Assembly: GCA_046754205.1 (NCBI GenBank)
Contig: JBHHVK010000002.1
Span: 1-34,146, forward strand
Direction: 5' to 3'
From: Thermodesulfobacteriota bacterium
GTDB lineage: Bacteria > Desulfobacterota > GWC2-55-46 > JBHHVK01
DNA: 34,146 nucleotides
How positions within the stretch are numbered: the stretch's first letter is position 1; every line of letters begins with the position of its first letter. The notes below the pieces were generated by a model. That model ran no database searches. It was not told where the DNA came from and saw only the letters and a list, made by a program, of their open reading frames with translations. This document shows, piece by piece, positions 18,057-34,146 of this stretch. A program made the position numbers and the translations under genes.

Positions 18057-19400
18057 ATGGTACAGAGCGGGAGAACGAGAGTATGTCTCACGAGCCTCGG
18101 GTGCCCCAAGAACCTCGTGGACTCCGAGGTGATGCTCGGCATCCTCGAGGAGTCGGGCTTCGAGATAACGAGCGACGAGTCCGGGGCCGAGGTGCTCGTC
18201 GTCAACACCTGCGGCTTTGTCGGTGACGCCAAGGAGGAGTCGATTGCCGAGATATTGAGGCTCGCCGACTACAAGAAGACGGGGGCGTGCAGGCGGCTCG
18301 TCGTCACCGGGTGCCTGTCGCAGAGGTACGCCCGTGAGCTCGCCGGCGAGATGCCCGAGGTGGACTGCTTCGTCGGCACCGGAGAGTACGCCCGGATAGC
18401 CGAGGCCGCAGGCCGCGGCTTCGGCGGCAGGGTCCTCGTCGGCGCGCCCACCTACATACACGACTACGACACCCCGAGGATACTCTCCACACCGGGCTTC
18501 TACGCGTACGTAAAGGTCGCCGAGGGTTGCAGTAATCACTGCTCCTACTGCTCCATACCGGCCATAAGGGGGGAGTTCAGAAGCAGGGCCGCCGGGAGCG
18601 TGGCAAGGGAGGTGGCCTCGCTCGCCTCCCGGGGTGTGCGCGAGATAAACCTCGTCGCCCAGGACACCACCAGCTACGGGGCCGACAGGGGGGCGGAAGA
18701 AAGACTCCCGGCGCTCCTCAAGAGGCTCGTTACAGTCGAGGGTGTGGAGTGGATAAGGCTCCTGTACCTCTATCCGGGCAGACTCACCGAAGAGCTCATG
18801 GACCTCATCGCCGGAGAGGAGAAGGTCCTCGGCTACGTGGACCTGCCGCTCCAGCACATAAGCGGCCCGGTGCTCCGGGCCATGAACAGGCGCTACGACC
18901 GCGCCGTGGTCGCCGAGGAAATCGGAAGACTCCGGGAGAGGGTCCCCGGGGTGGTGCTCCGTACTTCTCTCATCGTCGGCTTTCCCGGTGAGACCGATAG
19001 CGACTTCGCCGGGCTCATGGACTTCATAAGCCGGACGCGCTTCGACCGTCTCGGCGTATTCAGGTATTCCCGGGAGGAGTCCACCGCGGCCTATGACATG
19101 GGAGGCCAGGTCCCGGAGAGCGTCAAGACCGAGAGGATGAACGCGGTGATGGAGGCCCAGAGGGTCATATCCCTTGAGAAGAACAGCTCGCTTGTGGGCG
19201 CGGAGCTCCGGGTCCTCGTGGAAGGCGCCGCCGACGACGAGGGTTTCCCCCTGAAGGGGAGGGCATGGTCCCAGGCCCCGGAGGTGGACGGCTGCGTCTA
19301 CATAACCGGGTCCTCGGCCCGGCCGGGAGACATTATCACGGTGAGGGTCACCGAGGCGTGGGACTACGACCTCGTGGGCGTCGAGTCCGGGCGGCCCTGA
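18057..19400 (+). CDS. rimO: Ribosomal protein S12 methylthiotransferase RimO (radical SAM MTTase)
   Basis: UPF0004 domain LGCPKNLVDSE...VVNTCGF. Radical SAM motif CSNHCSYCSIP. C-terminal TRAM domain (VLVEG...GRAWSQAPEVDG). Confidence 0.9.
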   Translation: MVQSGRTRVCLTSLGCPKNLVDSEVMLGILEESGFEITSDESGAEVLVVNTCGFVGDAKEESIAEILRLADYKKTGACRRLVVTGCLSQRYARELAGEMPEVDCFVGTGEYARIAEAAGRGFGGRVLVGAPTYIHDYDTPRILSTPGFYAYVKVAEGCSNHCSYCSIPAIRGEFRSRAAGSVAREVASLASRGVREINLVAQDTTSYGADRGAEERLPALLKRLVTVEGVEWIRLLYLYPGRLTEELMDLIAGEEKVLGYVDLPLQHISGPVLRAMNRRYDRAVVAEEIGRLRERVPGVVLRTSLIVGFPGETDSDFAGLMDFISRTRFDRLGVFRYSREESTAAYDMGGQVPESVKTERMNAVMEAQRVISLEKNSSLVGAELRVLVEGAADDEGFPLKGRAWSQAPEVDGCVYITGSSARPGDIITVRVTEAWDYDLVGVESGRP

Positions 19401-21321: not shown

Positions 21322-21500
21322 CTTCTTATCGAGAGTGGCAGAGGGACTGGCCCGATGAAGCCACAGCAACCGGTCCGCCTCAGGGCGTGATGTCAGGTGC
21401 TAATTCCAGCAAGGCCGTGGGAGACGTCATGTACCGTGCCGGGCGTCGCAACCCGTACCCCCAGGGGGGCTCGGGTTTCCCAGGACTTGGAAGATAAGGA
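21322..21500 (+). promoter_or_regulatory. SAM-I (S-box) riboswitch aptamer
   Basis: CTTATC-GAGAG-TGGCAGAGGGACTGGCCCGATGAAGCCAC-AGCAACC...GGTGCTAATTCCAGCAAGG...GGAAGATAAGG. It matches the S-box consensus in P1, the P2 kink-turn, the GCAACC / GGTGCTAA junctions and the closing GATAAG. The P4 arm is unusually long. Confidence 0.9.
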
Positions 21501-21683: not shown

Positions 21684-22931
21684 ATGAATTGCATGAAGGG
21701 GTTGAGGTGCAGGGAGTGCGGCAAGGAGTACCCGCACGAGGCCCTGCACGTCTGCGAGCTCTGTTTCGGCCCTCTCGAAGTCCACTACGACTACGATAGG
21801 ATAAAGGAGGTCCTCACCAGGGAGACCATCGAGTCGAGGCAGCCGAACATGTGGCGGTACAGGGAGCTGCTCCCCCTCGATGGAGACCCCTCCGTCGGGG
21901 GCCAGGTGGGGTTCACCCCTCTTATAAGGGCGAGAAACCTCGAAAAGGTCCTCGGGGTGCGCGAGCTCTACCTGAAGAACGACGCCGTCAACTACCCCAC
22001 GCTCTCCTTCAAGGACCGCGTCGTCTCCGTGGCCATATCCCGCGCCCGCGAGATGGGCTTTGACACCGTGGCCTGCGCGTCCACGGGAAACCTGGCCAAC
22101 TCCGTGGCGGCCAACGCCGCCGCCTGCGGGATGAAGAGCTACGTCTTCATCCCCTACGACCTCGAGCAGACCAAGATAACGGGCACGCTCGTCTACGGGG
22201 CCAAGGTCGTGGGCATCAAGGGCGCCTACGACGAGGTCAACCGCCTCTGCTCGGAGATAGCCGGAAAGTACGGCTGGGCCTTCGTCAACATAAACATACG
22301 CCCCTACTACGCCGAGGGCTCGAAGACCTTCGGCCACGAGATAGCCGAGCAGCTCGGCTGGAGGCTCCCGAAGCACGTGGTGGTGCCCATGGCCGGGGGC
22401 TCCCTCATAACCAAGATATGGAAGGCCTTCGAGGAGTTCAAGAAGCTCGGCCTGGTGGAGGACACCGGGACCAGCGTCTACGGGGCGCAGGCCGCCGGGT
22501 GCGCGCCCATCGTCACCGCCGTCAAGGAGGGCAGTGAGCTCATCCGCCCGGTCAAGGCCAGGACCATAGCCAAGTCGCTGGCCATAGGCAACCCCGCCGA
22601 CGGATACTACTCCGCAAAGACCATCCGCGAGAGCGGAGGCTGGGGCGAGGACGTCACCGACGCCGAGATAGTGGACGCCATGAAGATGCTCGCCGAGACC
22701 GAGGGCGTCTTCGCCGAGACCGCCGGGGGCGTGACCTTCGGAGTGGCCAAAAAACTCATCGAGCAGGGCCGCATCCCCACCGACGAGTCCATAGTGATAT
22801 CCATAACCGGAAACGGCCTCAAGACGCAGGAGGCCCTGAACGGCTCGATCGAGCCCCCGGTGGTCATAGACGCCAGGCTCGGGGAGTTCGACGCCCTGGT
22901 CAGGGCAGAGGAAAAAGAGCTCGCCCTTTGA
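21684..22931 (+). CDS. Threonine-synthase-family PLP enzyme with an N-terminal Zn-ribbon (candidate O-phosphohomoserine-dependent homocysteine synthase)
   Basis: CRECGKEY...CELCFGPL zinc ribbon. PLP-lysine motif PTLSFKDRVVS. ASTGNLANS and MAGGSL. GAGGAGGAGAG RBS. Sits behind a SAM riboswitch. Confidence 0.8.
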   Translation: MNCMKGLRCRECGKEYPHEALHVCELCFGPLEVHYDYDRIKEVLTRETIESRQPNMWRYRELLPLDGDPSVGGQVGFTPLIRARNLEKVLGVRELYLKNDAVNYPTLSFKDRVVSVAISRAREMGFDTVACASTGNLANSVAANAAACGMKSYVFIPYDLEQTKITGTLVYGAKVVGIKGAYDEVNRLCSEIAGKYGWAFVNINIRPYYAEGSKTFGHEIAEQLGWRLPKHVVVPMAGGSLITKIWKAFEEFKKLGLVEDTGTSVYGAQAAGCAPIVTAVKEGSELIRPVKARTIAKSLAIGNPADGYYSAKTIRESGGWGEDVTDAEIVDAMKMLAETEGVFAETAGGVTFGVAKKLIEQGRIPTDESIVISITGNGLKTQEALNGSIEPPVVIDARLGEFDALVRAEEKELAL

Positions 22932-23132: not shown

Positions 23133-24119
23133 ATGACGGACCACTTCATAGAGGACAAGAGGCACAAGGTCGACGTCGCCCTCGAAGGCGTAGGCCACGG
23201 CAAGGTGGACTTTGGCGACCTCAAGTCCGGCGGCTTCATAAAGCAGCGCCAGAAGGACCTCTTCACCGTGCGCCTCAGGTGCCCCGGCGGGAGGATGGAG
23301 ACTAAAAAGCTCGTTGAGATATCCAAGATAGCCGACAAGTACAGCAAAAAGGGGGTGGTGCACTTCAGCTACCGCCAGTCCCTCGAGATACTCTACGTCG
23401 ACTACAACGAGTTCAACAACATAGTCGCGGAGCTTGAAAAGATCGGCCAGAAGGTCGCCTCCTGCGGACCCAGGGTCCGCGTGCCCACGGCCTGCGGGGG
23501 CTGCGAGTACAACCCCAACGGGCTCATCGACACCCAGGCGCTCGCCGCGATGGTCGACGAGAAGTTCTTCGGCACGCCCACGCCCCACAAGTTCAAGACC
23601 TGCTTTTCAGGCTGCCCCATAGACTGCTCCCGGAGCAAGGAGATGGACCTCGGCTTCCAGGGCGTCGTCGAGCCCGAGTGGGACAAGCCGCTCTGCACGG
23701 GCTGCACCATCTGCGCGGAGGCCTGCAAGGAGGACGCCATAGAGAGCGACTCGGAGACGGGCATGCCCTACTTCGACCCGAAAAAATGCATCTACTGCGG
23801 CGACTGCATCCGCGCCTGCCCGACCGAGGCCTGGAAGGTCAAGAGGTATGGCCACACCGTAAGGATAGGCGGCAAGCACGGACGGCACCCCATGGAGTCG
23901 GTCGAGGTGGCCAACTTCATACCCGACGACAGGGTCGCCGCGGTAATAGAAAAGACCGTCGAGTGGTACAACGCCAACGGAGACCGCTTCGAGAGGATAG
24001 GCAACACCTTAAAGCGCGTCGGGCTCGACAAGTACATCGAGTTCATGGGTCCGCTGCTCGTCACCGAGCCCGCGGCGGAGTCGGGGGGCTATAAGAAACC
24101 GACCGAGAAGGCGGGTTGA
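23133..24119 (+). CDS. Small Dsr-like / assimilatory-type sulfite reductase (sirohaem-[4Fe-4S] domain with an inserted 2x[4Fe-4S] ferredoxin domain)
   Basis: Sirohaem-cluster Cys pattern TACGGCEY...CFSGCPIDC. Ferredoxin motifs CTGCTICAEAC and CIYCGDCIRACP. 328 aa. Confidence 0.7.
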   Translation: MTDHFIEDKRHKVDVALEGVGHGKVDFGDLKSGGFIKQRQKDLFTVRLRCPGGRMETKKLVEISKIADKYSKKGVVHFSYRQSLEILYVDYNEFNNIVAELEKIGQKVASCGPRVRVPTACGGCEYNPNGLIDTQALAAMVDEKFFGTPTPHKFKTCFSGCPIDCSRSKEMDLGFQGVVEPEWDKPLCTGCTICAEACKEDAIESDSETGMPYFDPKKCIYCGDCIRACPTEAWKVKRYGHTVRIGGKHGRHPMESVEVANFIPDDRVAAVIEKTVEWYNANGDRFERIGNTLKRVGLDKYIEFMGPLLVTEPAAESGGYKKPTEKAG

Positions 24120-24152: not shown

Positions 24153-24392
24153 ATGAGTGAAATCAAACCCGATGTCTCCCTCGACCTGCGGGGAGTGATG
24201 TGCCCCACGAACTTCGTCAAGGCAAAGCTGAAGTTAGAGATGATGGAAGAGGGCCAGGTCTTAGAGCTCGTCCTCGACAGCGGCGAGCCTATCGCGAACG
24301 TGCCCAAGTCCATAAAGGAGGAGGGGCACAGGGTCGTGGAGGTGAAGAGGGAGGACGACCACTTCCGCCTCAAGGTCCGCAAGGAGGCTTAG
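24153..24392 (+). CDS. TusA/SirA-family sulfur-carrier-like protein
   Basis: 79 aa. LDLRGVMCPTNFVKAKLKL holds the conserved active-site Cys-Pro of the TusA fold. Confidence 0.75.
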   Translation: MSEIKPDVSLDLRGVMCPTNFVKAKLKLEMMEEGQVLELVLDSGEPIANVPKSIKEEGHRVVEVKREDDHFRLKVRKEA

Positions 24393-24548
24393 GGGGGTAG
24401 GGGGTTTAGGGAGTGTAGGGGGCTTAGGGTGACGCTCTCCCCCCCCCGGCGGACGTGTCCGGCCTGTAAATGGGGCTCAGGGGGGCAGGGGGGCGAGGGG
24501 GGCGAGGCATGGGACAGCCATAGGTGGCGGGGGGGGCGAGGCAGGGGC
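24392..24548 (+). repeat. Two G-quadruplex-type tracts starting at the tusA-like stop codon
   Basis: TAGGGGGGTAGGGGGTTTAGGGAGTGTAGGGGGCTTAGGGTG (five TAGGG-type runs), then a C8 run, then GGGGCTCAGGGGGGCAGGGGGGCGAGGGGGGCGAGG...GGCGGGGGGGGCGAGGCAGGGG. Confidence 0.75.
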
Positions 24549-24567
24549 CGTAAGGCTCCCCTTTTTT
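24544..24567 (+). terminator. Weak intrinsic terminator or attenuator between the tusA-like and thiS-like genes
   Basis: GGGGCC-GTAA-GGCTCCCC, a 6-bp stem with one bulge, followed by TTTTTT. Confidence 0.35.
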
Positions 24568-24628
24568 ACCCCCTTTGCACAGACCGGGTTCAGGATTAAA
24601 AAAAGCGGATATATTCAGGAGGTGCGCG

Positions 24629-24910
24629 ATGTCAGTCAAGGTGAGGATACCCACACCGCTCAGGAAGATTACCAATAACTCCGATGAGGTAGCCGCCGAG
24701 GGGACGAACGTCGGGCAGGTTATAGAGGACCTCGAGAAGAACTACCCGGGCATCAAGGAGAGGATCTGCGAGGAGGACGGCAGGCTCAGGCGCTTCGTGA
24801 ACCTCTACCTCAACGACGAGGACATCAGGTTCATGAACAACCTCGATACCGAGCTCAAGGACGGCGACGAGCTTTCCATCATCCCAGCCATAGCCGGAGG
24901 GTCCCGGTGA
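24629..24910 (+). CDS. ThiS/MoaD-family ubiquitin-like sulfur carrier ending GG-Ser-Arg
   Basis: 93 aa from the ATG at 24629 behind an AGGAGG RBS. DGDELSIIPAIAGGSR* is the beta-grasp C-terminus, with a Gly-Gly followed by two extra residues. Confidence 0.8.
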   Translation: MSVKVRIPTPLRKITNNSDEVAAEGTNVGQVIEDLEKNYPGIKERICEEDGRLRRFVNLYLNDEDIRFMNNLDTELKDGDELSIIPAIAGGSR

Positions 24911-25143
24911 AGAAGAGGGTCTACCTTACATACCCGAAGGAGCAGGTGAAGGAACCGCTCCTCTACCAGTGCGGCAAGCTCTGCGGCGTGGCCTTCAACA
25001 TCAGGCAGGCGAGCGTGTCGGACGCGGTGGGGCTCGTGGCGCTCGAGCTCGAAGGGGAGCCCGAGGAGATAGACAGGGCCATCGACTTCTTTATCAGCAA
25101 GGGCGTCAAGGTCGAGCCCATAGAGCTCGATATCATCGAGTGA
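24907..25143 (+). CDS. Stand-alone NIL-domain protein (ferredoxin-like fold, as at the MetN C-terminus)
   Basis: GTGA start/stop overlap with the carrier gene. 78 aa. YLTYPKEQVKEPLLYQ...FNIRQASVS...GLVALELEG...FFISKGVKVEPI matches the NIL-domain pattern. Confidence 0.65.
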   Translation: MKKRVYLTYPKEQVKEPLLYQCGKLCGVAFNIRQASVSDAVGLVALELEGEPEEIDRAIDFFISKGVKVEPIELDIIE

Positions 25144-25216
25144 CCCCTGCGGCCGCCGCCCGCCCATCCCCTTGTCCCCGCTGCCGGGGGTTGAGACGGC
25201 GATTGCGCATACAAGG

Positions 25217-25244
25217 ACCCCCGTCGCCCGGCGGGGGTTTTTTT
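25217..25244 (+). terminator. Intrinsic terminator ending the riboswitch-led unit
   Basis: ACCCCCG-TCGCCCGG-CGGGGGT followed by a T7 run. Confidence 0.75.
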
Positions 25245-25355
25245 GTCCTGCCCGCCGCGCCCGGCCCGCCGCGCAGGGGGGGGCTGACCCCTCGAATACC
25301 TTAAAAAATGTAAGGTTTTTAAGGGTTTGAATTTGCCGTTCGGTGGTAAAATATC

Positions 25356-25382
25356 TTGACAAAAGAACTAAGGTATTATAGT
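25356..25382 (+). promoter_or_regulatory. Candidate promoter of the cysM-JAMM-moeB unit
   Basis: TTGACA (25356-25361) with TATAGT (25377-25382) at a short 15-bp spacing. An AT-rich region with inverted repeat CCTTAAAAA-N8-TTTTTAAGG (25299-25324) lies upstream. Confidence 0.4.
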
Positions 25383-25551
25383 TTAAAAGTTGAGAAGTCT
25401 ACTAAGGTATTCTGCGGCGGCCTCGCCCGTTTCCGCCCGCCCTTTTCCGGATGGGCGCGCTTCAGGAAGAGGGCCCTATCCGGCCGCCGTGCAGGAGTCT
25501 GGTCGGCGTGTCCCTTCGGCAGGTCACGTAACCTTCGAGAGGTAATGGTTT

Positions 25552-26532
25552 ATGGGAGGACAGGGACGTAATCTCGCGGCCCCCGACCGCGAAGGCGCGG
25601 TTCTTCACACCTCCGGCGGGGCGAGGGTCGGCGCCTCGGTGCTCGAGCTCGTGGGCAACACACCCCTTGTGAGGATAAACAACATCACCAGGGGGCTGGC
25701 TCCCGGGGTGGATATCTACGCCAAGCTCGAGAGCTGCAACCCCGGGGGCTCGGTCAAGGACCGCGCGGCGCTCAGCATGATAGAGGACGCCGAAAATAGC
25801 GGCAGGTTCACGAAGGACAAGGTCCTTCTCGACTCCACCTCGGGCAACACCGGGATAGCCTACGCCTGGATATGCGCCGTCAAGGGGTACAAGGTAAGGC
25901 TCTGCGTGCCCGAGAACGTGAGCGAGGAGCGCAAGAAGACGCTCCGCGCCTTCGGCGCCGAGGTGGTCTTCAGCAACCCCCTCGAGGGCTCGGACGGCGC
26001 CATAAGGCTCGCCTGGAAGATATACGTTGAAAACCCGGAGATATACTGCAAGCTCGACCAGTACAACAACCCCTCCAACCCGATGGCCCATTACAAACAC
26101 ACGGGCCCGGAGATAATCGAGCAGACCGGGGGCAAGGTTACGCACCTCGTGGCCTCCATAGGCACCGGCGGGACCATAATGGGCACGGGCCGGAGCCTGA
26201 AGGAGTTCAACCCGGACATACAGGTCGTGGCGGTGGAGCCGGACAGCCCGCTGCACGGGCTCGAGGGCCTCAAGCACATGGCCTCCTCGATAGTGCCCGG
26301 CATTTACCACGCCGAGCAGCACGACAGCAAGGTGCCGGCCCCCACGGAGGAGTCCTACGACATGGCCAAGAGGCTCGCCCGCGAGGAGGGGCTCCTCGTG
26401 GGCCAGTCCTCGGGAGCGGCCATGTGGGGCGCTCTCGAGGTGGCCCGGAACCTCGACAGGGGGCTGGTGGTGGTCATCTTCCCCGACGGGGGCGACAAGT
26501 ACCTCTCCACCAGGCTCTGGGACGAGGCATAA
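25552..26532 (+). CDS. Cysteine synthase-family PLP enzyme (CysM/CysK-like)
   Basis: LVGNTPLVRIN, KLESCNPGGSVKDRAAL (PLP Lys), STSGNTGIAYA and GTGGTIMG. The N-terminal 25 or so residues are non-conserved, so the true start may be further downstream. Confidence 0.88.
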   Translation: MGGQGRNLAAPDREGAVLHTSGGARVGASVLELVGNTPLVRINNITRGLAPGVDIYAKLESCNPGGSVKDRAALSMIEDAENSGRFTKDKVLLDSTSGNTGIAYAWICAVKGYKVRLCVPENVSEERKKTLRAFGAEVVFSNPLEGSDGAIRLAWKIYVENPEIYCKLDQYNNPSNPMAHYKHTGPEIIEQTGGKVTHLVASIGTGGTIMGTGRSLKEFNPDIQVVAVEPDSPLHGLEGLKHMASSIVPGIYHAEQHDSKVPAPTEESYDMAKRLAREEGLLVGQSSGAAMWGALEVARNLDRGLVVVIFPDGGDKYLSTRLWDEA

Positions 26533-26707: not shown

Positions 26708-27151
26708 ATGATATTAGGCTTTGGCAAGAGCGCCATACACGTACCGAGGGCCGTATATGACGAGATTATAAACCACGCCAGGGACGCCTATCCCGACGAG
26801 TGCTGTGGTTTTCTCGTAGGCAAGGCCATAAGGGACAAGCGGGTCTGGCAGGTGGAGCGCGGCACGAACGCCAACACCGAGAGGTCCAGGGACAGGTACG
26901 TAATAGACCCGAAGGAGTATCACCTGACCGACAAGGTCGCCAGGACCCAGGGCCTCGACATCCTCGGCTTCTACCACTCCCACCCGGACCACCCCGACCG
27001 TCCCAGCGAGTTCGACCGCGCCGAGGGGCACCCGGGGTTCTCATACATCATTGTCTCCGTCCAGGGCGGAAAGACCGTCTCCGCCAGGAGTTGGATCTTC
27101 GACAAGGATGACGAGCCCTTCAGGGAAGAGAAGATAAAGATAGTCGACTGA
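26708..27151 (+). CDS. JAMM/MPN+ metallopeptidase (Mec+/HcyD/QbsD-like)
   Basis: ECCGFLVG Glu motif and the JAMM signature HSHPDHPDRPSEFD (H-x-H-x7-S-x2-D). 147 aa. Confidence 0.88.
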   Translation: MILGFGKSAIHVPRAVYDEIINHARDAYPDECCGFLVGKAIRDKRVWQVERGTNANTERSRDRYVIDPKEYHLTDKVARTQGLDILGFYHSHPDHPDRPSEFDRAEGHPGFSYIIVSVQGGKTVSARSWIFDKDDEPFREEKIKIVD

Positions 27152-27248: not shown

Positions 27249-28061
27249 ATGGACTTTACGGAAGAACAGATAGAGCGATACTCCAGGCACATCATACTCC
27301 CCGAGGTGGGCGGCCGTGGACAGGCCAAGCTCCTCAAGAGCCGGGTCTTCGTCCTCGGGGCCGGGGGGCTCGGCAGCCCGAGCCTCTTTTATCTCGCCGC
27401 CGCCGGCGTGGGCTCCATAGGCCTGGCCGACGGCGATTCCGTGGACGTCAGCAACCTCCAGCGCCAGATAATCCACACAAACTCGGATGTGGGCGCCCCC
27501 AAGGTCCACTCCGCCAGGGAATCCATCGAGGCCCTCAACCCTGACGTCAAGGTCGAGGCCTTCCACGGGCGGCTCACCGAGGAGAACATCCGCGAGGTGA
27601 TACGCCCATACGACGTAGTCCTCGACGGGTCGGACAACTTCCCCACCAGGTTCCTCGTCAACGACGCCTGCTTCTTCGAGCAAAAGACCCTCGTCTCGGG
27701 CTCCATGTTCAGGTTCGACGGCCAGGTCTCGGTCTTCAAGCCCCACGACGGCGGCCCCTGCTACAGGTGCCTCTATCCGGAGCCGCCCCCGAAGGGGCTC
27801 GTGCCGAGCTGCCAGGAGGCCGGGGTCCTCGGGGCGCTCGCCGGGGTAATCGGCGTCCTCCAGGCCGTGGAGGCCATTAAGGAGATACTCGGCATAGGAG
27901 AGTCGCTCGCCGGAAACCTCCTGATATTCGACGCCCTCAAGATGGGCTTCAGGAAGGTCAAGGTCAGGCGCGACCCCGAGTGCGCGCTCTGCGGGGGCAG
28001 CCCCACGATTACGGAACTCCGCGAGTACGAGCAGGAGGCCTGCGAGTGGAGCGCCGGCTGA
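27249..28061 (+). CDS. MoeB/ThiF-family E1-like adenylyltransferase (no rhodanese domain)
   Basis: RYSRHIILPEVG, the GAGGLGS nucleotide loop, SNLQRQ, and Zn-site pairs CYRC...CALC. 270 aa. Confidence 0.88.
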   Translation: MDFTEEQIERYSRHIILPEVGGRGQAKLLKSRVFVLGAGGLGSPSLFYLAAAGVGSIGLADGDSVDVSNLQRQIIHTNSDVGAPKVHSARESIEALNPDVKVEAFHGRLTEENIREVIRPYDVVLDGSDNFPTRFLVNDACFFEQKTLVSGSMFRFDGQVSVFKPHDGGPCYRCLYPEPPPKGLVPSCQEAGVLGALAGVIGVLQAVEAIKEILGIGESLAGNLLIFDALKMGFRKVKVRRDPECALCGGSPTITELREYEQEACEWSAG

Positions 28062-28101
28062 CGCCCGGAGCGTGCATCGCCCCTTCATAAAGGTTGCCGG
28101 C

Positions 28102-29313
28102 ATGAAGAACAACTACCTCGATAACCCCGGGGCCCTGAAGATAGACCTCATGCTCCAGGGCATCAGGATAGAGGACCCGGTGCTCAAGGCCTGGGCCTGC
28201 GGCGCCGACGGCATGGACATACTCTTGCCCATGGGCACGCTGGTCAACGTCCCCTGCAGCGACTACGTGGCCTCGACGTCGCCGTACGTCATAAAGAAGT
28301 CCGGCGATGGGCACGCCATAACCTTCGACGGGGCCGGCGAGGTGCCCGTGAGGTTCCTGCCCAAGCCCGAGTTCTACTACCGGAAGACCTCCACGGGGGT
28401 TCCCTTCTCGCGCATCGCCTCGGTCCACGGCAGCTACACCGTCATTACCCCGTCTCCGAGGTGCGAGTTCTTCAACCGGAAGGTCGAGTGCAAGTACTGC
28501 GCCGGCAACTTCGACGTCATCGGCGCGGACGAGACGGTCTTCTCCGTGGACGAGGTGCTCGAAACGGTCGCCGCGGTCCTGAAGGAGAAGGTCTCGGAGA
28601 TAATATACCTCTCGGTGGGGTTCAGCGAGGGGGACGACGGGGGTGTGGAGTTCCTCCGGCCCTACGTAAGGGCAATAAAGAAGCACTTCAACGTTCTGGT
28701 GGCCGTGGAGGCGCTGCCGCCGAAGGACAACCGCTGGATAGACAGGACCTACGCCATGGGGGCCGACTCGGTCCTCTACAACCTCGAGATATACGACCGC
28801 GAGCTCTTCGGGCTCATCTGCCCGGGCAGGGCCGAGCTCATAGGCTGGGAGAGGTACGCGGAGGCCCTCGGCTACGCCGCCGGCGTATTCCCCAACGGCA
28901 CCGTCGCCTCTCACCTCATCGTCGGGCTCGAGCCCCCGGGCTCCACTGTCCAGGGTATAGACTTTCTCGTCTCCATGGGGGTGGTGCCGATACTTCCGGT
29001 CATCAGGCCCACGAGGGACAGGTCGTACCACATTCACCCGCTCACTGCGGACGTCATAATCCCCGTATACAGGCACCTGTACAAGGCGCTCAAGGGGAGC
29101 GCGGTGAACTTCCGCTGGGTCCGCGACATCAGCATGGTCACCACCCCGGTGGAGGGAAGGCTCCTCGTGGACGAGGGCGGCCAGGGCGACAAGGCGACCC
29201 TCATGGAGAGTTTTTACGGGACGAGGCTCGGGCTCAAGGCCGCCTGGGGCCTTTCGACGATCAGGAGAAAGCTAAGGGTTAAGGAGGTCAAGGACCCCTC
29301 TGAGAACTCGTAA
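28102..29313 (+). CDS. Unassigned protein with a C-x8-C-x2-C motif (possible non-canonical radical SAM TIM-barrel enzyme)
   Basis: PRCEFFNRKVECKYCAGN cysteine triad, followed by IIYLSVGFSEGDDGG, which resembles a GGE-like motif. About 400 aa. The alternative GTG start at 28072 follows the moeB-like stop by 10 nt. Confidence 0.4.
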   Translation: MKNNYLDNPGALKIDLMLQGIRIEDPVLKAWACGADGMDILLPMGTLVNVPCSDYVASTSPYVIKKSGDGHAITFDGAGEVPVRFLPKPEFYYRKTSTGVPFSRIASVHGSYTVITPSPRCEFFNRKVECKYCAGNFDVIGADETVFSVDEVLETVAAVLKEKVSEIIYLSVGFSEGDDGGVEFLRPYVRAIKKHFNVLVAVEALPPKDNRWIDRTYAMGADSVLYNLEIYDRELFGLICPGRAELIGWERYAEALGYAAGVFPNGTVASHLIVGLEPPGSTVQGIDFLVSMGVVPILPVIRPTRDRSYHIHPLTADVIIPVYRHLYKALKGSAVNFRWVRDISMVTTPVEGRLLVDEGGQGDKATLMESFYGTRLGLKAAWGLSTIRRKLRVKEVKDPSENS

Positions 29314-29348: not shown

Positions 29349-30779
29349 TTGAGCGTTGAGATAGACACAAGGCCCATATGGGTTATCCTTCTGCAGAGGT
29401 CCCTGAGGCCGGTCTTTTTCCTGGCCATGGCGCTGATCTTCTGGCTCGTCCTGGCCGTGCCGACCCCGGCCGGGTTGACGCCCGAGGGACAGAAGGCCAT
29501 AGCCGTCTTCGTCCTCTGCCTGGTGCTGTGGGTATCGGGCGCCGTGCCGCTCGCGATTACGTCGCTCTTCGCCATAGTGCTGGTGCCGGTGCTGGGGATA
29601 CTCCCCCACAAGGAGACCCTCGGGCTCTTCGGCAACGAGGCGGTCTTCTTCATACTCGGCGCGTTCATACTCGCCGGGGCGGTGATGCAGACGGGGCTCA
29701 GCAACCGCATCGCGCTCACCATACTCGACAGGTCGGGGTACTCGCCGAAAAGGCTCCTCATAAGCATCTTCCTCCTGGCGGCGTTCCTCTCCTTCTTCAT
29801 GAGCGAGCACGCCGTGGCGGCCATGCTCTTCCCCATAGTGCTCGAGATATCGAAGAGCCTGGGCCTCAGGCCGGGAAGGTCGAACTACGGCAAGCTCCTC
29901 TTCTTCGCGCTGGCCTGGGGGTGCGTAATAGGCGGCGTGGCGACATTCCTCGGCGGGGCCCGGGTGCCGCTCGCCATGGGCATCCTGAGCGAGACCACGG
30001 GCGAGACCATAGGTTTCCTCGACTACTCCATCGCCGTCTTCCCCGTGGTGGTGATACTCCTCGTCGTGGGGTATCTCCTTCTGACGAGGTTCTTCCCCGT
30101 GGACATAGACGGGGTGGACAGGGCGCGGGAAGTGCTCGACGCAAGGGTCAGGGCCCTCGGCAAGGTCTCCTTCAAGGAGTACTCCGTGGGCCTGCTCCTC
30201 GTCGCCACCATCCTCTGCTGGATACTCTTCGGCGGCAGGGTCGGGCTATCCACCATCGCGCTCTCCTCGGTGGTGGTGCTCTTCGTCTTCAGGCTCGTCC
30301 GGTGGAGGGACATAGAGGAGTACGTCAACTGGGGGATAATCCTCATGTACGGCGGGGCCATCATCCTGGGCACCGCCCTCGATAGATCCGGGGCGGCCGA
30401 GTGGCTCGTCGGCTCGGTCCTCGGCTCCTGGGCCACGGGGCCGATGCTGGTCATCGGGTTCATCTCGCTCCTCACGCTCCTTCTGACCGAGGCCATGAGC
30501 AACGCCGCGGTCATAGCCGTGCTCCTGCCCGTGGCCATGGGGCTGGCGGGAAAGCTCTCCATGGACCCTACGGTCATGACCTATGCCGTCGCCGTGCCTG
30601 CGGGACTTGCCTTCATGTTCCCCATGAGCACGCCGGCTAACGCGCTTGCGATATCGTCGAGCTACGTAAGCGTCCGCGACCTCATAAAGGGTGGCTTCAT
30701 CATGTTCATCACGGCATGGGTGGCCTTCAACCTGGTGGCCGCCTTCTGGTGGCCCCTCATAGGGCAGGGATACGGGTAG
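29349..30779 (+). CDS. SLC13/DASS-family anion permease (candidate sulfate or sulfur-oxyanion importer)
   Basis: 476 aa, polytopic membrane protein with duplicated hairpin motifs (FMSEHA...; EAMSNAAVIAVLLPV...; MSTPANA). TTG start. Confidence 0.7.
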   Translation: MSVEIDTRPIWVILLQRSLRPVFFLAMALIFWLVLAVPTPAGLTPEGQKAIAVFVLCLVLWVSGAVPLAITSLFAIVLVPVLGILPHKETLGLFGNEAVFFILGAFILAGAVMQTGLSNRIALTILDRSGYSPKRLLISIFLLAAFLSFFMSEHAVAAMLFPIVLEISKSLGLRPGRSNYGKLLFFALAWGCVIGGVATFLGGARVPLAMGILSETTGETIGFLDYSIAVFPVVVILLVVGYLLLTRFFPVDIDGVDRAREVLDARVRALGKVSFKEYSVGLLLVATILCWILFGGRVGLSTIALSSVVVLFVFRLVRWRDIEEYVNWGIILMYGGAIILGTALDRSGAAEWLVGSVLGSWATGPMLVIGFISLLTLLLTEAMSNAAVIAVLLPVAMGLAGKLSMDPTVMTYAVAVPAGLAFMFPMSTPANALAISSSYVSVRDLIKGGFIMFITAWVAFNLVAAFWWPLIGQGYG

Positions 30780-30803: not shown

Positions 30804-31271
30804 ATGAAAAATGTGCTCTTAGTCTTATCCACTTCGAGGACCTCCGAAGAGGTCCTCGGCTACGCCGTGGAAAAGGCCGCCGAGGCGGGCGTTAAGCTCG
30901 TGGCCCTCTACATCCTCGAAAAGGAGCTCGCCGAGGAGGTCTTCGACGCCTTTACGGACGTGGGCTTCATAGGCGACAGGCCATCGGTGCAGATAACCGA
31001 GTCGCTCATGAAGGAGTACCGCCAGAGGGGCTACGAGGAGCTCGGCCGTCTCCAGATAAGGACCATGGAGGCGGGCGTGGACTTCGACCCCCTGATGGAG
31101 GAGGGCGACTACGTCACCACCGTGCTCGACGCCATGGAGGGCCGGGACATAGGGCTCGCCGTCCTCATAAAGCGCAGGAAGAGGAGCTTTTTCAAGTACT
31201 TTTCAAAGTCCCTCGCCGAGGAGGTCAAGGAAAAGGCCCCCTGCGAGGTCGTCATATTCGAGGAAGAATGA
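30804..31271 (+). CDS. Universal stress protein-like (adenine-nucleotide alpha-hydrolase fold)
   Basis: MKNVLLVLSTSRTSEEVLGYAVEKA...KLVALYIL...APCEVVIFEE. 155 aa. Confidence 0.5.
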   Translation: MKNVLLVLSTSRTSEEVLGYAVEKAAEAGVKLVALYILEKELAEEVFDAFTDVGFIGDRPSVQITESLMKEYRQRGYEELGRLQIRTMEAGVDFDPLMEEGDYVTTVLDAMEGRDIGLAVLIKRRKRSFFKYFSKSLAEEVKEKAPCEVVIFEEE

Positions 31272-31293: not shown

Positions 31294-31992
31294 ATGATAA
31301 GCGTTAAGGTCTGGACCGCCGAAGAGCTCGGCAAGGTGAACGATGAACTGGAGGGAAGCCCCCCCCAGGACGTGCTCCGCTGGGTCGTGGATAACTTCGC
31401 TCGCGAGGACTTCGCGCTCGCCTGCAGCTTCGGCGAGCCGGTCCTCGTGGACATGCTCGTCAAGATAAAGCCCGACGCCCGCATATTCTCTCTCGACACC
31501 GGGCTCCACTTCGCCGAGACCCTGGAGCTCAAGGACGAGATAGAGCGCAAGTACGGCATCAGGATAGAGATGTACAGGCCGAAGCTGACGCTCGATGAGA
31601 TGGAAAGGGAGTACGGTCCCGAGCTCTGGAAGCGTAATCCCGACGAGTGCTGCAGGATCCGCAAGGTCGAGCCCTTGAAAGAGGTCCTCTCCGGGCTCAA
31701 GGCCTGGATTACCGGCATCCGCAGGGACCAGTCCCCCACGAGGAAAAACGCCCCGGTGGTGGGCATCGACCCGAAGCACGGCCTCGTGAAGGTCAACCCG
31801 CTGGTCAACTGGACGTCGCGCGACGTCTGGGAGTACCTCGAGCGCAACGGCGTGCCCTACAACAGGCTCCTCGACCAGGCCTTCGCCTCCGTCGGGTGCG
31901 AGCCCTGCACCAGGCCGATAATCCCCGGCGAGGACGAGAGGGCGGGCCGCTGGGATGGTTTTGCGAAGACCGAGTGCGGGCTCCACAAATAA
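31294..31992 (+). CDS. cysH: Adenylylsulfate (APS)-type phosphoadenosine phosphosulfate reductase family enzyme
   Basis: ACSFG...SLDTG PP-loop-type motifs. The Cys pairs DECCRIRK and CEPC are typical of [4Fe-4S] APS reductases. C-terminal catalytic ECGLH. Confidence 0.88.
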   Translation: MISVKVWTAEELGKVNDELEGSPPQDVLRWVVDNFAREDFALACSFGEPVLVDMLVKIKPDARIFSLDTGLHFAETLELKDEIERKYGIRIEMYRPKLTLDEMEREYGPELWKRNPDECCRIRKVEPLKEVLSGLKAWITGIRRDQSPTRKNAPVVGIDPKHGLVKVNPLVNWTSRDVWEYLERNGVPYNRLLDQAFASVGCEPCTRPIIPGEDERAGRWDGFAKTECGLHK

Positions 31993-32162: not shown

Positions 32163-33020
32163 GTGGCCGAAGGAACCGTCAAGGGGGGCGAGGGGGGGGG
32201 CGAGGGGGGGGGCGGGGGGTTGTCAGACGGCCTCGTCGGCGAGCTTTCCGCGCTCGCCGACGCCGCCGGAAGGGCGATACTCGAGATATACTCAGGGGCC
32301 GACTTCGGCACCACCTACAAGGACGACCGGAGCCCGCTGACCATGGCCGACGAGGCCTCAAACAGGGTCATCATCGCCGGGCTCGCCGACATCGCCCCGG
32401 GGATACCCGTCCTCTCCGAGGAGTCCGGGCAGGTCCCCTACGGCCGGAGAAGGGACTGGGAGAGGTTCTTCCTCGTCGACCCGCTCGACGGCACGAAGGA
32501 GTTCATCAAGCGTAACGGCGAGTTCACCGTCAATATCGCCCTCGTGGAAGGGGGCCGGCCCGTCGTCGGGGTGGTCCACTGCCCGGCTCTCGGGGTGACC
32601 TACTCGGGGGTTGCGGGCTCGGGCGCGAAGAAGGCCTCGAAAGGGGGTAGTATCGCGATAAGGGCCGGGGGCCCCGCTGGCGGCGCGCTCAAGGTCGTGG
32701 CCTCGAGGTCCCACAGGGGCGAGGCCACGGACAGGTTCGTCGAAAGGCTCCGCGCCGAGGGCCGCCAGGTCGAGTTCGTGGGCATGGGGAGCTCCTTGAA
32801 GCTCTGCCTCGTAGCCGAGGGGGCCGCCCACCTCTACCCGAGGTTCGGCCCCACCATGGAGTGGGATACCGCGGCGGCCCAGTGCGTGGTCGAGGCCGCG
32901 GGCGGCGCCGTCACCGACCTTGACGGGGCCCCGCTGGTGTACAACAAGGAGGACCTCTTAAACCCGTACTTCATGGTCGTGGGCGACCCGGCCTTCACAT
33001 GGCAACGGTACATCTACTGA
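32163..33020 (+). CDS. cysQ: 3'(2'),5'-bisphosphate nucleotidase
   Basis: SEESG, VDPLDGTKEF and WDTAAAQCVVEAAGG inositol-monophosphatase-family motifs. GTG 32163 has a GGGAGAGAGAG RBS but gives a Gly/Glu-rich N-terminus encoded by a G-run tract. TTG 32220 is an alternative start. Confidence 0.85.
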   Translation: MAEGTVKGGEGGGEGGGGGLSDGLVGELSALADAAGRAILEIYSGADFGTTYKDDRSPLTMADEASNRVIIAGLADIAPGIPVLSEESGQVPYGRRRDWERFFLVDPLDGTKEFIKRNGEFTVNIALVEGGRPVVGVVHCPALGVTYSGVAGSGAKKASKGGSIAIRAGGPAGGALKVVASRSHRGEATDRFVERLRAEGRQVEFVGMGSSLKLCLVAEGAAHLYPRFGPTMEWDTAAAQCVVEAAGGAVTDLDGAPLVYNKEDLLNPYFMVVGDPAFTWQRYIY

Positions 33021-33185
33021 GGGGCCGCAGGATTAATCTTAAAACCCGTACTTCATGGTCGTGGGCGACCCGGCCTTCACATGGCAACGGTACATCTACT
33101 GAGGGGCCGCAGGATTAATCTTAAAACCCGTACTTCATGGTAACGGGCGACCCGGCCTTCCCCTGGCGCGGATACATCGGCCGGG
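32961..33185 (+). repeat. 82-bp tandem repeat spanning the cysQ stop codon (two identical copies plus one diverged partial copy)
   Basis: 32961-33042 and 33043-33124 are identical base for base (AACCCGTACTTCATGGTCGTGGGCGACCCGGCCTTCACATGGCAACGGTACATCTACTGAGGGGCCGCAGGATTAATCTTAA). A third copy from 33125 shares the first 36 nt or so with three substitutions and then diverges. Confidence 0.95.
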
Positions 33186-33257
33186 GGGCGAGGGACATGA
33201 AAAACCTTTCTTCATAATACCACAAAGAGGATTACACGATAAGGAGGACGGCACAAG

Positions 33258-34146
33258 GTGACTAAGCTTATAGAGCCTCACGGAGGCGAACTCAAGGAAC
33301 TGATAGTGGCTGAAGCCGAGGCGGAGGCCCTCAAGGAAGAGGCACTGGGCCTCGTTTCATGGGACCTTACGGAGCGCCAGATGTGGGACGTGGAGATGCT
33401 CCTGAGCGGCGGGTTCAGCCCGCTCGAGGGTTTTCTCGGAAAGAAGGATTACGAGGCCGTCCTCGAAAAGATGAGGCTCGCCGACGGCACGATCTGGACC
33501 ATGCCCATAACCCTCGACGTGACCGCGGAGTTCGCCGAAGGCGTAAAGGAGGGTGACCGCGTGGCGCTGCGCGACCCCGAGGGGGTCCTCATGGCGGTCC
33601 TCACGGTTTCGGACAAATGGACCCCGGACAAAAAGAACGAGGCCGAGAAGGTCTTCGGCAGCGACGATACGGTGCACCCCGGCATCAACTACCTCCTTAA
33701 CATGGCAGGCCCCGTGTACCTCGGCGGGAGGCTCGAAGGCGTAGAGGCCCCGCGCCACTACGACTTCAAGGAGCTCCGCTACACCCCCAGGCAGTTGAGG
33801 GAGAAGTTCGAGCGCCTCGGCTGGCGCAAGATCGTCGCCTTCCAGACCCGAAACCCCATGCACCGGGCGCACCAGGAGCTGACCTTCCGCGCCGCCCAGA
33901 ACACCGAGGCGAACCTGTTGATCCACCCGGTCGTCGGCATGACCAAGCCCGGTGACATCGACCATTACTCGAGGATCCGCTGCTACGAGCACCTGATAGC
34001 CCACTACCCCGAGCAGTCCACGGCGCTTTCCCTCCTGCCGCTCGCCATGAGGATGGGCGGGCCCAGGGAGGCCGTGTGGCACGCCATAATCAGGAAGAAC
34101 TTCGGCTGCACCCACTTCATCGTGGGAAGGAACCACGCCGACCCGG
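33258..34146 (+). CDS. sat: Sulfate adenylyltransferase (ATP sulfurylase), 3' end outside the window
   Basis: Not in the ORF track because no stop lies in the window. My own translation from GTG 33258 (AAGGAGGA RBS 9 nt upstream) gives [17 protein letters not shown]...[11 protein letters not shown]...[16 protein letters not shown]...[12 protein letters not shown]...[10 protein letters not shown]. Confidence 0.88.

Follow-up and report, generated by a model that had tools for sequence, protein, structure and literature searches.

A predicted variant radical SAM protein that accompanies a DASS-family transporter in ThiS/ThiF sulfur-carrier loci

Among the genes on a 34,146-nucleotide (nt) stretch of Thermodesulfobacteriota DNA (contig JBHHVK010000002.1, positions 1 to 34,146; hereafter the window) is one that an earlier sequence-only reading described as a possible non-canonical radical S-adenosylmethionine (SAM) or sulfur-mobilising Fe-S enzyme at the end of a sulfur-carrier operon. 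We find that its product is predicted to be a variant member of the radical SAM superfamily, and that the steadiest partner of the gene is a DASS anion transporter, which that reading did not consider, and not the sulfur carrier. In Zetaproteobacteria the two are a single protein. We suggest, tentatively, that the radical-SAM-like protein serves the transporter.

The gene, its product and its locus

The gene and its landmarks, with residues numbered here and throughout according to the longer, 413-residue reading frame, are as follows.

28102..29313, + strand: variant radical-SAM-fold Fe-S protein, 403 amino acids (hidden Markov model, homologue alignment, AlphaFold2 (AF2) model and Foldseek)
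28462..28500, + strand: PRCEFFNRKVECKYCAGN, C131-x8-C140-x2-C143, presumed [4Fe-4S] ligands
28618..28644, + strand: GFSEGDDGG, residues 183-191 (alignment and inspection)
29263..29280, + strand: RRKLRV, residues 398-403, C-terminal subfamily marker

The open reading frame had been placed 10-40 nt after the stop codon of a moeB-like gene, and the two distances correspond to two possible starts. A GTG-initiated frame of 413 residues (28072..29313, + strand) begins 10 nt past the ThiF/MoeB-like stop at 28061, and an in-frame ATG at 28102, 40 nt past the same stop, is preceded by aaagg. Homologues are about 400 residues long and begin MKKNYL, and their alignment with the window protein starts at residue 11, which is ATG 28102. 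Because of the aaagg and this agreement, the real gene is most likely 28102..29313.

Both segments singled out in the sequence-only reading, the PRCEFFNRKVECKYCAGN cysteine triad and GFSEGDDGG, are present and can now be placed in a fold. The protein consists of an N-terminal beta-rich domain (approximately residues 11-120), a radical SAM barrel (approximately 120-320) and a C-terminal helical region. As elsewhere in the radical SAM superfamily, the loop with the triad follows the first barrel strand (E122-125 in the AF2 model). G183 of GFSEGDDGG sits past barrel strand 2, where distant relatives carry SGGS or SGGT, resembling the GGE-type SAM motif, and the D-x-G formed by D189 and G191 is specific to the family and is retained even by members that lack the cysteines. 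By inspection, N237-x-E239 lies past strand 4 and SHLIVGLE on strand 5. The subfamily is marked by an N-terminal NPGxLK(L/I)xL segment, which in the window protein reads NPGALKIDL (residues 18-26), and by the C-terminal motif R[RK]xL[RK][VI], or RRxLRV.

The triad was invariant in 120/120 listed homologues of 60-96% identity. A second clade retains it in 117/118 members, and the fused zetaproteobacterial proteins, with Cx9CxxC spacing, in 118/119; it is therefore no chance feature. The x8 spacing is the commonest among family representatives (81/150), with x9-x11 occurring as well. C250 is the sole further conserved cysteine in the window's clade and is lost in distant members; no auxiliary-cluster cysteines or motif were found in the clade alignment or in the subfamily, whose proteins contain 3-8 cysteines in total.

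Assignment to the superfamily comes from profiles and from predicted structure. The protein passed the NCBIfam model NF045502, "variant_rSAM" (182.7 bits against a cutoff of 125, residues 66-334), and missed that of TIGR04043, the MSMEG_0568 family (124.6 against 303.7 bits). Pfam Radical_SAM (PF04055) remained below its gathering threshold (22.9 against 29.5 bits), which two subfamily relatives pass (P0133 with 32.1 and P0165 with 31.7 bits), and a LipS2 model matched weakly (21.4 bits, cutoff 270). In the AF2 model, built on 24 homologues (pLDDT 77.7, pTM 0.78), a partial or full (beta/alpha) TIM-barrel core is present, and the top 26 of 26 Foldseek matches in the PDB were radical SAM enzymes, among them ThiH, LipA, HydE, BioB, HydG, PylB and NifB (E 2e-7 to 1e-4, TM about 0.4-0.6). 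Searches of PDB sequences with the single protein and with profile A1 gave no meaningful match; profile A2 gave marginal matches to ThiH, BioB and LipA, together with DASS matches caused by a fused member. An exhaustive profile search recovered 1664 cluster representatives at E<=1e-3, 201 of them at E<=1e-30.

The canonical radical SAM motif is CxxxCxxC. On the profile and model evidence the window protein is a Cx8CxxC variant within the superfamily, with an Fe-S cluster presumed from the motif. The earlier guess of a non-canonical radical SAM protein is thus borne out at superfamily level, and the structural comparison that had been proposed for it, a Foldseek search for a TIM barrel, did return a radical SAM barrel. 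It is no longer the case that no family can be named, although the curated name, variant_rSAM, carries no function. In public databases the proteins appear as "radical SAM protein", "hypothetical protein" or, for the fusions, "DASS family symporter". JGI calls some stand-alone radical-SAM-like proteins of 407-410 residues "solute carrier family 13", probably by transfer of annotation from the fused forms.

The window also encodes, 9 kb upstream (18057-19400, + strand), a canonical MiaB/RimO-type methylthiotransferase with UPF0004, Radical_SAM and TRAM domains, which scores 81.9 bits against the Radical_SAM model, compared with 22.9 bits for the variant protein. An hhalign comparison of the two gave a probability below 1%, with a weak in-register match of the last two cysteines.

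The features around the gene, all on the + strand, are listed below.

21323..21430, +: SAM-I riboswitch (RF00162), at the head of the gene cluster
21684..22931, +: threonine-synthase-like (ThrC-like) pyridoxal phosphate enzyme
23133..24119, +: small sulfite reductase (NIR_SIR with ferredoxin insert)
24153..24392, +: TusA-like sulfur transfer protein
24575..24910, +: ThiS/MoaD-type sulfur carrier, ending ...AIAGG-SR; likely start ATG 24629
24907..25143, +: stand-alone NIL domain protein
25552..26532, +: CysK/CysM-type cysteine synthase
26708..27151, +: Prok-JAB (JAMM) peptidase
27249..28061, +: ThiF/MoeB-type E1 with no rhodanese domain, orthologous to the ThiF copy that adjoins the radical SAM gene in other lineages
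29349..30779, +: DASS family anion symporter (Na_sulph_symp; TIGR00785, 264 bits)
30804..31271, +: universal stress protein (Usp), the usual successor of the DASS gene
31294..31992, +: thioredoxin-dependent adenylyl sulfate/phosphoadenylyl sulfate (APS/PAPS) reductase, CysH (TIGR02055, 240.3 bits against a cutoff of 235.3)
32163..33020, +: CysQ 3'(2'),5'-bisphosphate nucleotidase
33258..34146, +: ATP sulfurylase, partial, running past the window end

By gene content, namely a GG-tailed carrier, ThiF, Prok-JAB, a CysK/M-like and a ThrC-like enzyme, this is a ThiS/E1/JAB sulfur-carrier operon, and its context makes the ThrC-like enzyme a candidate MetM-type thiocarboxylate-dependent homocysteine synthase. 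The radical SAM gene had been said to close the operon; this was wrong, as the genes for the DASS transporter, Usp, APS reductase, CysQ and the partial ATP sulfurylase continue on the same strand. Between the stop codon of the radical SAM gene and the beginning of the DASS gene are 35 nt, and in the window no terminator-like site was found between ThiF, the radical SAM gene and DASS, the gaps being short. At the 3' end of cysQ and beyond (32960-33205) lie three tandem 82-nt copies, two of them 100% identical and the third 68% identical, which may reflect a true duplication of the end of the gene or else an error of assembly.

SAM is a regulatory signal of the locus, given the SAM-I riboswitch that heads the cluster in the window and in 6/7 related loci (L001 3369-3482, L005 3732-3849, L081 5481-5591, L083 5621-5733, L098 2428-2539 and L167 3412-3546), which span the window's clade, Binatia, another metagenomic lineage and Mariprofundus. 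It is missing at the group-3 locus L106, which has no ThrC-like gene. Scanning window positions 24350-25700 by E-value revealed nothing credible as a second riboswitch. Between NIL and cysM, however, a terminator-like hairpin with a T-run (25222-25245) is followed by a promoter-like TTGACA element with two exact copies of ACTAAGGTATT (25367-25377 and 25401-25411, within 25356-25411), and six loci of the window's clade carry these copies unchanged. The element matched no Rfam family and, judged by its sequence, probably serves as an internal promoter that includes the operator of some regulator. Owing to the hairpin and this element, the radical SAM gene may be transcribed apart from the riboswitch. 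A further hairpin of the terminator type, again with a T-run, precedes the start of ThiS, downstream of TusA (24544-24569, + strand), and the cluster may therefore be read as more than one transcript.

Company of the gene across lineages

Two samples were compared: 74 species-level loci from metagenome-assembled genomes (MAGs) of the window's clade, labelled Deltaproteobacteria or Thermodesulfobacteriota and carrying orthologues of 47-70% identity, and 80 more distant metagenome loci, in which DASS adjacency could be scored in 48 and the upstream neighbour in 58. Among loci of the window's clade with sufficient flanking sequence, 60/62 have DASS as the next gene downstream, and an assembly gap interrupts one of the remaining two. 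In the distant loci, whose surrounding gene order differs, DASS is the downstream neighbour in 43/48. The Binatia-type order is ThiF1-ThrC-ThiS-CysM-NIL-ThiF2-rSAM-DASS-Usp/Sat (rSAM being the radical-SAM-like gene), with no JAB, TusA or sulfite reductase, and in L083 the stop and start codons overlap by 4 nt between ThiF2 and rSAM and by 1 nt between rSAM and DASS. A third arrangement reads CysH-TusA-Sat-rSAM-DASS-Usp-CysM...JAB. The pair also occurs away from carrier genes, as TauE-rSAM-DASS in L141, where a TauE/SafE family permease adjoins it and no carrier genes are within reach, and as Rrf2-Sat-rSAM-DASS in L165.

In two family representatives the pair has become one polypeptide; another is a JAB-rSAM fusion, and more distant representatives carry ATP-grasp domains. 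A search with an rSAM-DASS fusion returned 119 clusters of proteins of about 875 residues (59-95% identity), and all those with a taxonomic name are zetaproteobacterial, including Mariprofundus ferrooxydans, M. micogutta, M. ferrinatatus, M. erugo and Ghiorsea bivora. The Cx9CxxC spacing occurs in 117 of the 119, and about 25-35 residues separate an RRxLRV-type motif from the first transporter helix that follows it. NCBI names these proteins "DASS family sodium-coupled anion symporter". The complete genome of M. ferrinatatus (CP018800.1, L167) has the order ThrC-ThiS-NIL-CysM-ThiF-[SiR-TusA]-[rSAM-DASS]-CysH-CysD-CysN. Since it is found throughout Zetaproteobacteria, the fusion has persisted stably in a lineage of class rank, some of whose strains are in culture. 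The [SiR-TusA] protein, a sulfite reductase with a fused C-terminal TusA (781 residues), is itself directly upstream of the rSAM-DASS fusion (L167 7626-9971; L080 2-484).

Loci within one clade are not independent samples, and for this reason our argument rests on the recurrence of the rSAM-DASS pair in at least four differently arranged lineages, together with the fusion. The RRxLRV motif was considered as a docking signal for DASS only and rejected, as it is also kept in cassettes without DASS nearby.

Linkage to the carrier genes, a co-occurrence that the sequence-only reading had proposed to examine for ThiS, ThiF and JAB, proved to be conserved across lineages. In the window's clade the gene just before the radical SAM gene is ThiF in 60/60 loci; in the distant loci it is ThiF in 38/58, and the remaining upstream neighbours there are Sat (5), JAB (at least 3) and other genes. 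The Binatia-type operon is headed by an intact ThiF, and in several such loci the second copy, ThiF2, which adjoins rSAM, has lost the GxGGxG and SNLxRQ nucleotide-binding segments (L082 9275-9994 and L083 9351-10004; compare L081 9270-10043). Owing to this loss we regard these ThiF2 proteins as pseudo-E1s, which could act as a scaffold. The Binatia ThiF pair is reminiscent of active/inactive E1 heterodimers. Many Binatia-type ThiS proteins end in GG plus one residue (A, R, V or H; for example L083 7820-8095 and L148 5903-6175), with no JAB in the operon.

Marine contigs carry the gene in a minimal ThiS-JAB-rSAM cassette whose stop and start codons overlap, with no DASS or ThiF nearby; on one of these contigs (L097 7243-9359) the genes after JAB-rSAM are those of a MoxR-like AAA ATPase and of a VWA (CoxE-like) protein, in place of DASS. 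The NIL gene, considered as a functional partner of the radical SAM protein, was rejected because it co-occurs with the ThrC-like gene and not with the radical SAM gene. Thiazole synthesis in the manner of ThiH was likewise rejected as a role, since none of the loci contains thiG.

Some members have lost the cysteine triad. Of about 50 full-length representatives at 50% identity with a C-terminal R[RK]xL[RK][VI], ten lack it, and a rough neighbour-joining tree scatters these ten over about seven separate branches. They nevertheless keep the segments NPGxLK, DxG, PYxxAIK, WIDxxYAxGxD, FPxG, GVVP and RRxLRV, and DASS is beside the gene in both loci examined, NIL-CysM-JAB-ThiS-[Cys-less]-DASS and Rrf2-Sat-[Cys-less]-DASS. 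The loss of the triad on about seven branches and the lack of auxiliary-cluster cysteines argue against an obligatory role in radical C-S bond formation or sulfur insertion.

Possible roles of the protein

Radical SAM proteins are known as soluble enzymes. That this one is fused or adjacent to a transporter and is kept after loss of its ligands argues for a non-classical role, be it as a sensor, as a scaffold or in chemistry coupled to import. The reading that we favour, though tentatively, is that it is a dedicated cytoplasmic subunit of a DASS importer, probably of sulfate, and ties uptake to ThiS/ThiF-dependent incorporation, probably through Fe-S/SAM sensing; that it is a partner of the transporter is the firmer part of this proposal, and that it is a sensor the less firm one. 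The subunit would couple uptake physically to the machinery that charges the carrier, by docking ThiF/ThiS (and JAB), which fits the retention of a pseudo-E1 and the existence of a JAB fusion. Its site-differentiated [4Fe-4S] cluster, probably SAM-bound, would mainly sense sulfur, Fe-S or SAM sufficiency and gate uptake or hand-off, and would not catalyse radical C-S bond formation; in lineages without the three cysteines the scaffolding role alone would remain. We prefer this reading because it covers together the conservation of fold and ligands, the companionship and fusion with DASS, and the repeated loss of the ligands.

We also consider it possible, with more reserve, that a secondary sulfate transporter has a radical-SAM-fold [4Fe-4S] domain built into it as a working part, be it a SAM/Fe-S-gated valve or a catalytic exit module. 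As a valve it would match sulfate uptake to the sulfur end-products of the cell; as a catalyst it would act at the transporter exit and pass sulfur chemistry to the ubiquitin-like carrier through the pseudo-E1 scaffold. Either version, if true, would provide the first demonstrated case of a radical SAM domain functioning as a subunit of a transporter.

Several observations weigh against the importer-subunit proposal. About 10% of the distant loci, the marine ThiS-JAB-rSAM cassettes, have no DASS nearby. The AF2 model of a natural Mariprofundus fusion has a pLDDT of 86.8 and a pTM of only 0.61, so that no defined interface between the domains is predicted even though the domains are well folded. 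Sulfate as the probable substrate of DASS is deduced from context, namely the sat, cysH and cysDN genes close by. That the three cysteines are almost perfectly conserved in the big clades would fit a true enzyme equally well, and we know of no precedent for a sensor with a radical SAM fold. Finally, in the window's clade the hairpin and the internal promoter-like element stand between the riboswitch and the gene in question.

Of the alternatives, a sulfur relay survives best, although we think it unlikely. The unique iron of the cluster would take sulfide from sulfite reductase to the ThiS acyl-adenylate on ThiF, yielding ThiS-COSH, and would thus replace the rhodanese domain of MoeZ-type E1s. 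The window E1 does consist of a ThiF domain alone, ThiF is immediately upstream in 60/60 and 38/58 loci, the pseudo-E1 is retained beside the gene in Binatia, and both the ThiS-JAB-rSAM cassettes and the JAB fusion would suit such a function. TusA, whose absence from the Binatia operons favours the relay, is on the other hand present in the window and in several other architectures. Members without the triad would be incapable of the relay and yet persist, some rSAM-DASS pairs have no carrier genes nearby, and the transporter fusion is left unexplained. In the Wolinella HcyS system, moreover, free sulfide is reportedly sufficient in vitro.

Less likely again is a true radical SAM enzyme, which by 5'-deoxyadenosyl chemistry would form a C-S bond from ThiS-COSH, with JAB freeing the adduct, or would modify the carrier C-terminus. 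The radical SAM fold with its conserved triad is what such an enzyme would have; its closest structural neighbours, ThiH, HydG, BioB and LipA, act on amino acids or insert sulfur, and the weak LipS2 match points the same way, as do the JAB-rSAM fusion and the three-gene ThiS-JAB-rSAM cassettes with their overlapping codons. However, the CysM-like and ThrC-like enzymes of the same operon would already supply cysteine and homocysteine, auxiliary-cluster cysteines are absent, and ten representatives on about seven branches do without the triad. Near-universal adjacency or fusion to DASS is not accounted for, and the operons of Zetaproteobacteria and Binatia have no JAB.

Chemistry coupled to import of another substrate appears improbable. 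DASS would then import a sulfo-carboxylate or thiosulfate, which the radical SAM domain would convert, for example with release of sulfite for the reductase. Such a function would make sense of the fusion to or adjacency with a transporter, of the TauE/SafE permease that adjoins the pair in L141 and of the sulfite reductase and TusA close by in many loci. The first hairpin motif of the window-type DASS is also in its favour, being on inspection of the sequence SEH/PEH, unlike the SNT of dicarboxylate DASS proteins such as VcINDY. Against this, Sat, CysH or CysDN beside the pair in most loci points to sulfate itself, no other sulfate transporter is encoded in the clusters, and triad-less members have been retained.

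Maturation or repair of a cofactor for a pathway enzyme, such as the siroheme or Fe-S centres of sulfite or APS reductase, seems very improbable: radical SAM enzymes often build cofactors and the TIGR04043 relatives are thought to be biosynthetic, but Binatia and marine loci have the gene without sulfite reductase or CysH nearby, and a permanent transporter fusion is not expected of a one-off maturase.

Relation to known systems

To the databases the radical SAM superfamily and the variant_rSAM family are already known. Our literature searches, covering the cysteine spacing, radical SAM with thiocarboxylate, Nit1C, Binatia, Zetaproteobacteria with DASS, and MetM/MetO, retrieved no paper on the subfamily; in the literature searched, the DASS pairing, the context of ThiS-dependent sulfate assimilation, the pseudo-E1 neighbour and the recurrent Cys-less forms are undescribed. 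The main interest lies in a radical SAM domain built into a transporter, which is unexpected. The gene is carried by uncultured Thermodesulfobacteriota-like MAGs, by Binatia and by Zetaproteobacteria, and the last of these include cultured iron-oxidising Mariprofundus strains that have the fused domain and are open to experiment.

Relatives of the NF045502/TIGR04043 type resemble the window protein in having an N-terminal domain and a barrel with Cx8-10CxxC in place of CxxxCxxC. TIGR04043 (the MSMEG_0568 family) is the radical SAM gene of the Nit1C nitrilase cluster, with neighbours of the Nit1C type. Its members differ from the window protein in being about 365 residues long, with 9-16 cysteines including C-terminal clusters and no RRxLRV tail, and they adjoin ATP-grasp domains and not DASS or ThiS genes, whereas the window gene stands in a sulfur assimilation neighbourhood. 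ThiH, HydG, HydE, BioB, LipA and PylB are the best fold matches (Foldseek E 2e-7 to 1e-5, TM about 0.41-0.64), and SHLIVGLE resembles, on inspection, their strand-5 motif; the window protein nevertheless shares only 15-18% identity with them and differs in its cysteine spacing, its extra N-terminal domain and its lack of an auxiliary cluster.

Two further systems offer models for function. The plant SULTR (SLC26) transporters carry a STAS domain that binds cysteine synthase and so links sulfate uptake to assimilation, which is a model for the cytoplasmic uptake-coupling module that we propose, although STAS is of an unrelated fold, has no Fe-S cluster and belongs to SLC26 and not to DASS. For the sulfur relay the model would be the [4Fe-4S] sulfurtransferases TtuA and Ncs6, in which three cysteines hold a cluster with a free iron site and a ThiS-like thiocarboxylate is the donor; by fold these are PP-loop ATPases, their substrate is tRNA, and no transporter is linked to them.

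The locus as a whole is closest to the known sulfur-carrier systems. Iyer et al. 2006 (PMC1779556) described a sulfur-assimilation class of ThiS/JAB/E1 operons (type 4e) with ABC sulfate transporters and no radical SAM gene. The statement of the sequence-only reading that the described CysO, HcyS and MetO systems include no protein of this kind holds in the descriptions of ThiS/JAB/E1 systems (PMC1779556 and the GapMind preprint). With type 4e, CysO, HcyS and MetO-MetM the window locus has in common a GG-tailed carrier, a rhodanese-less E1, JAB, TusA/SirA and sulfite reductase, as well as APS/PAPS reductase, ATP sulfurylase, cysteine synthase and a ThrC-like enzyme. It is unlike those systems as described in that DASS and its radical-SAM-like partner replace the ABC-type sulfate transporter. 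The radical-SAM-like protein may represent a missing piece of protein-thiocarboxylate-dependent sulfate assimilation.

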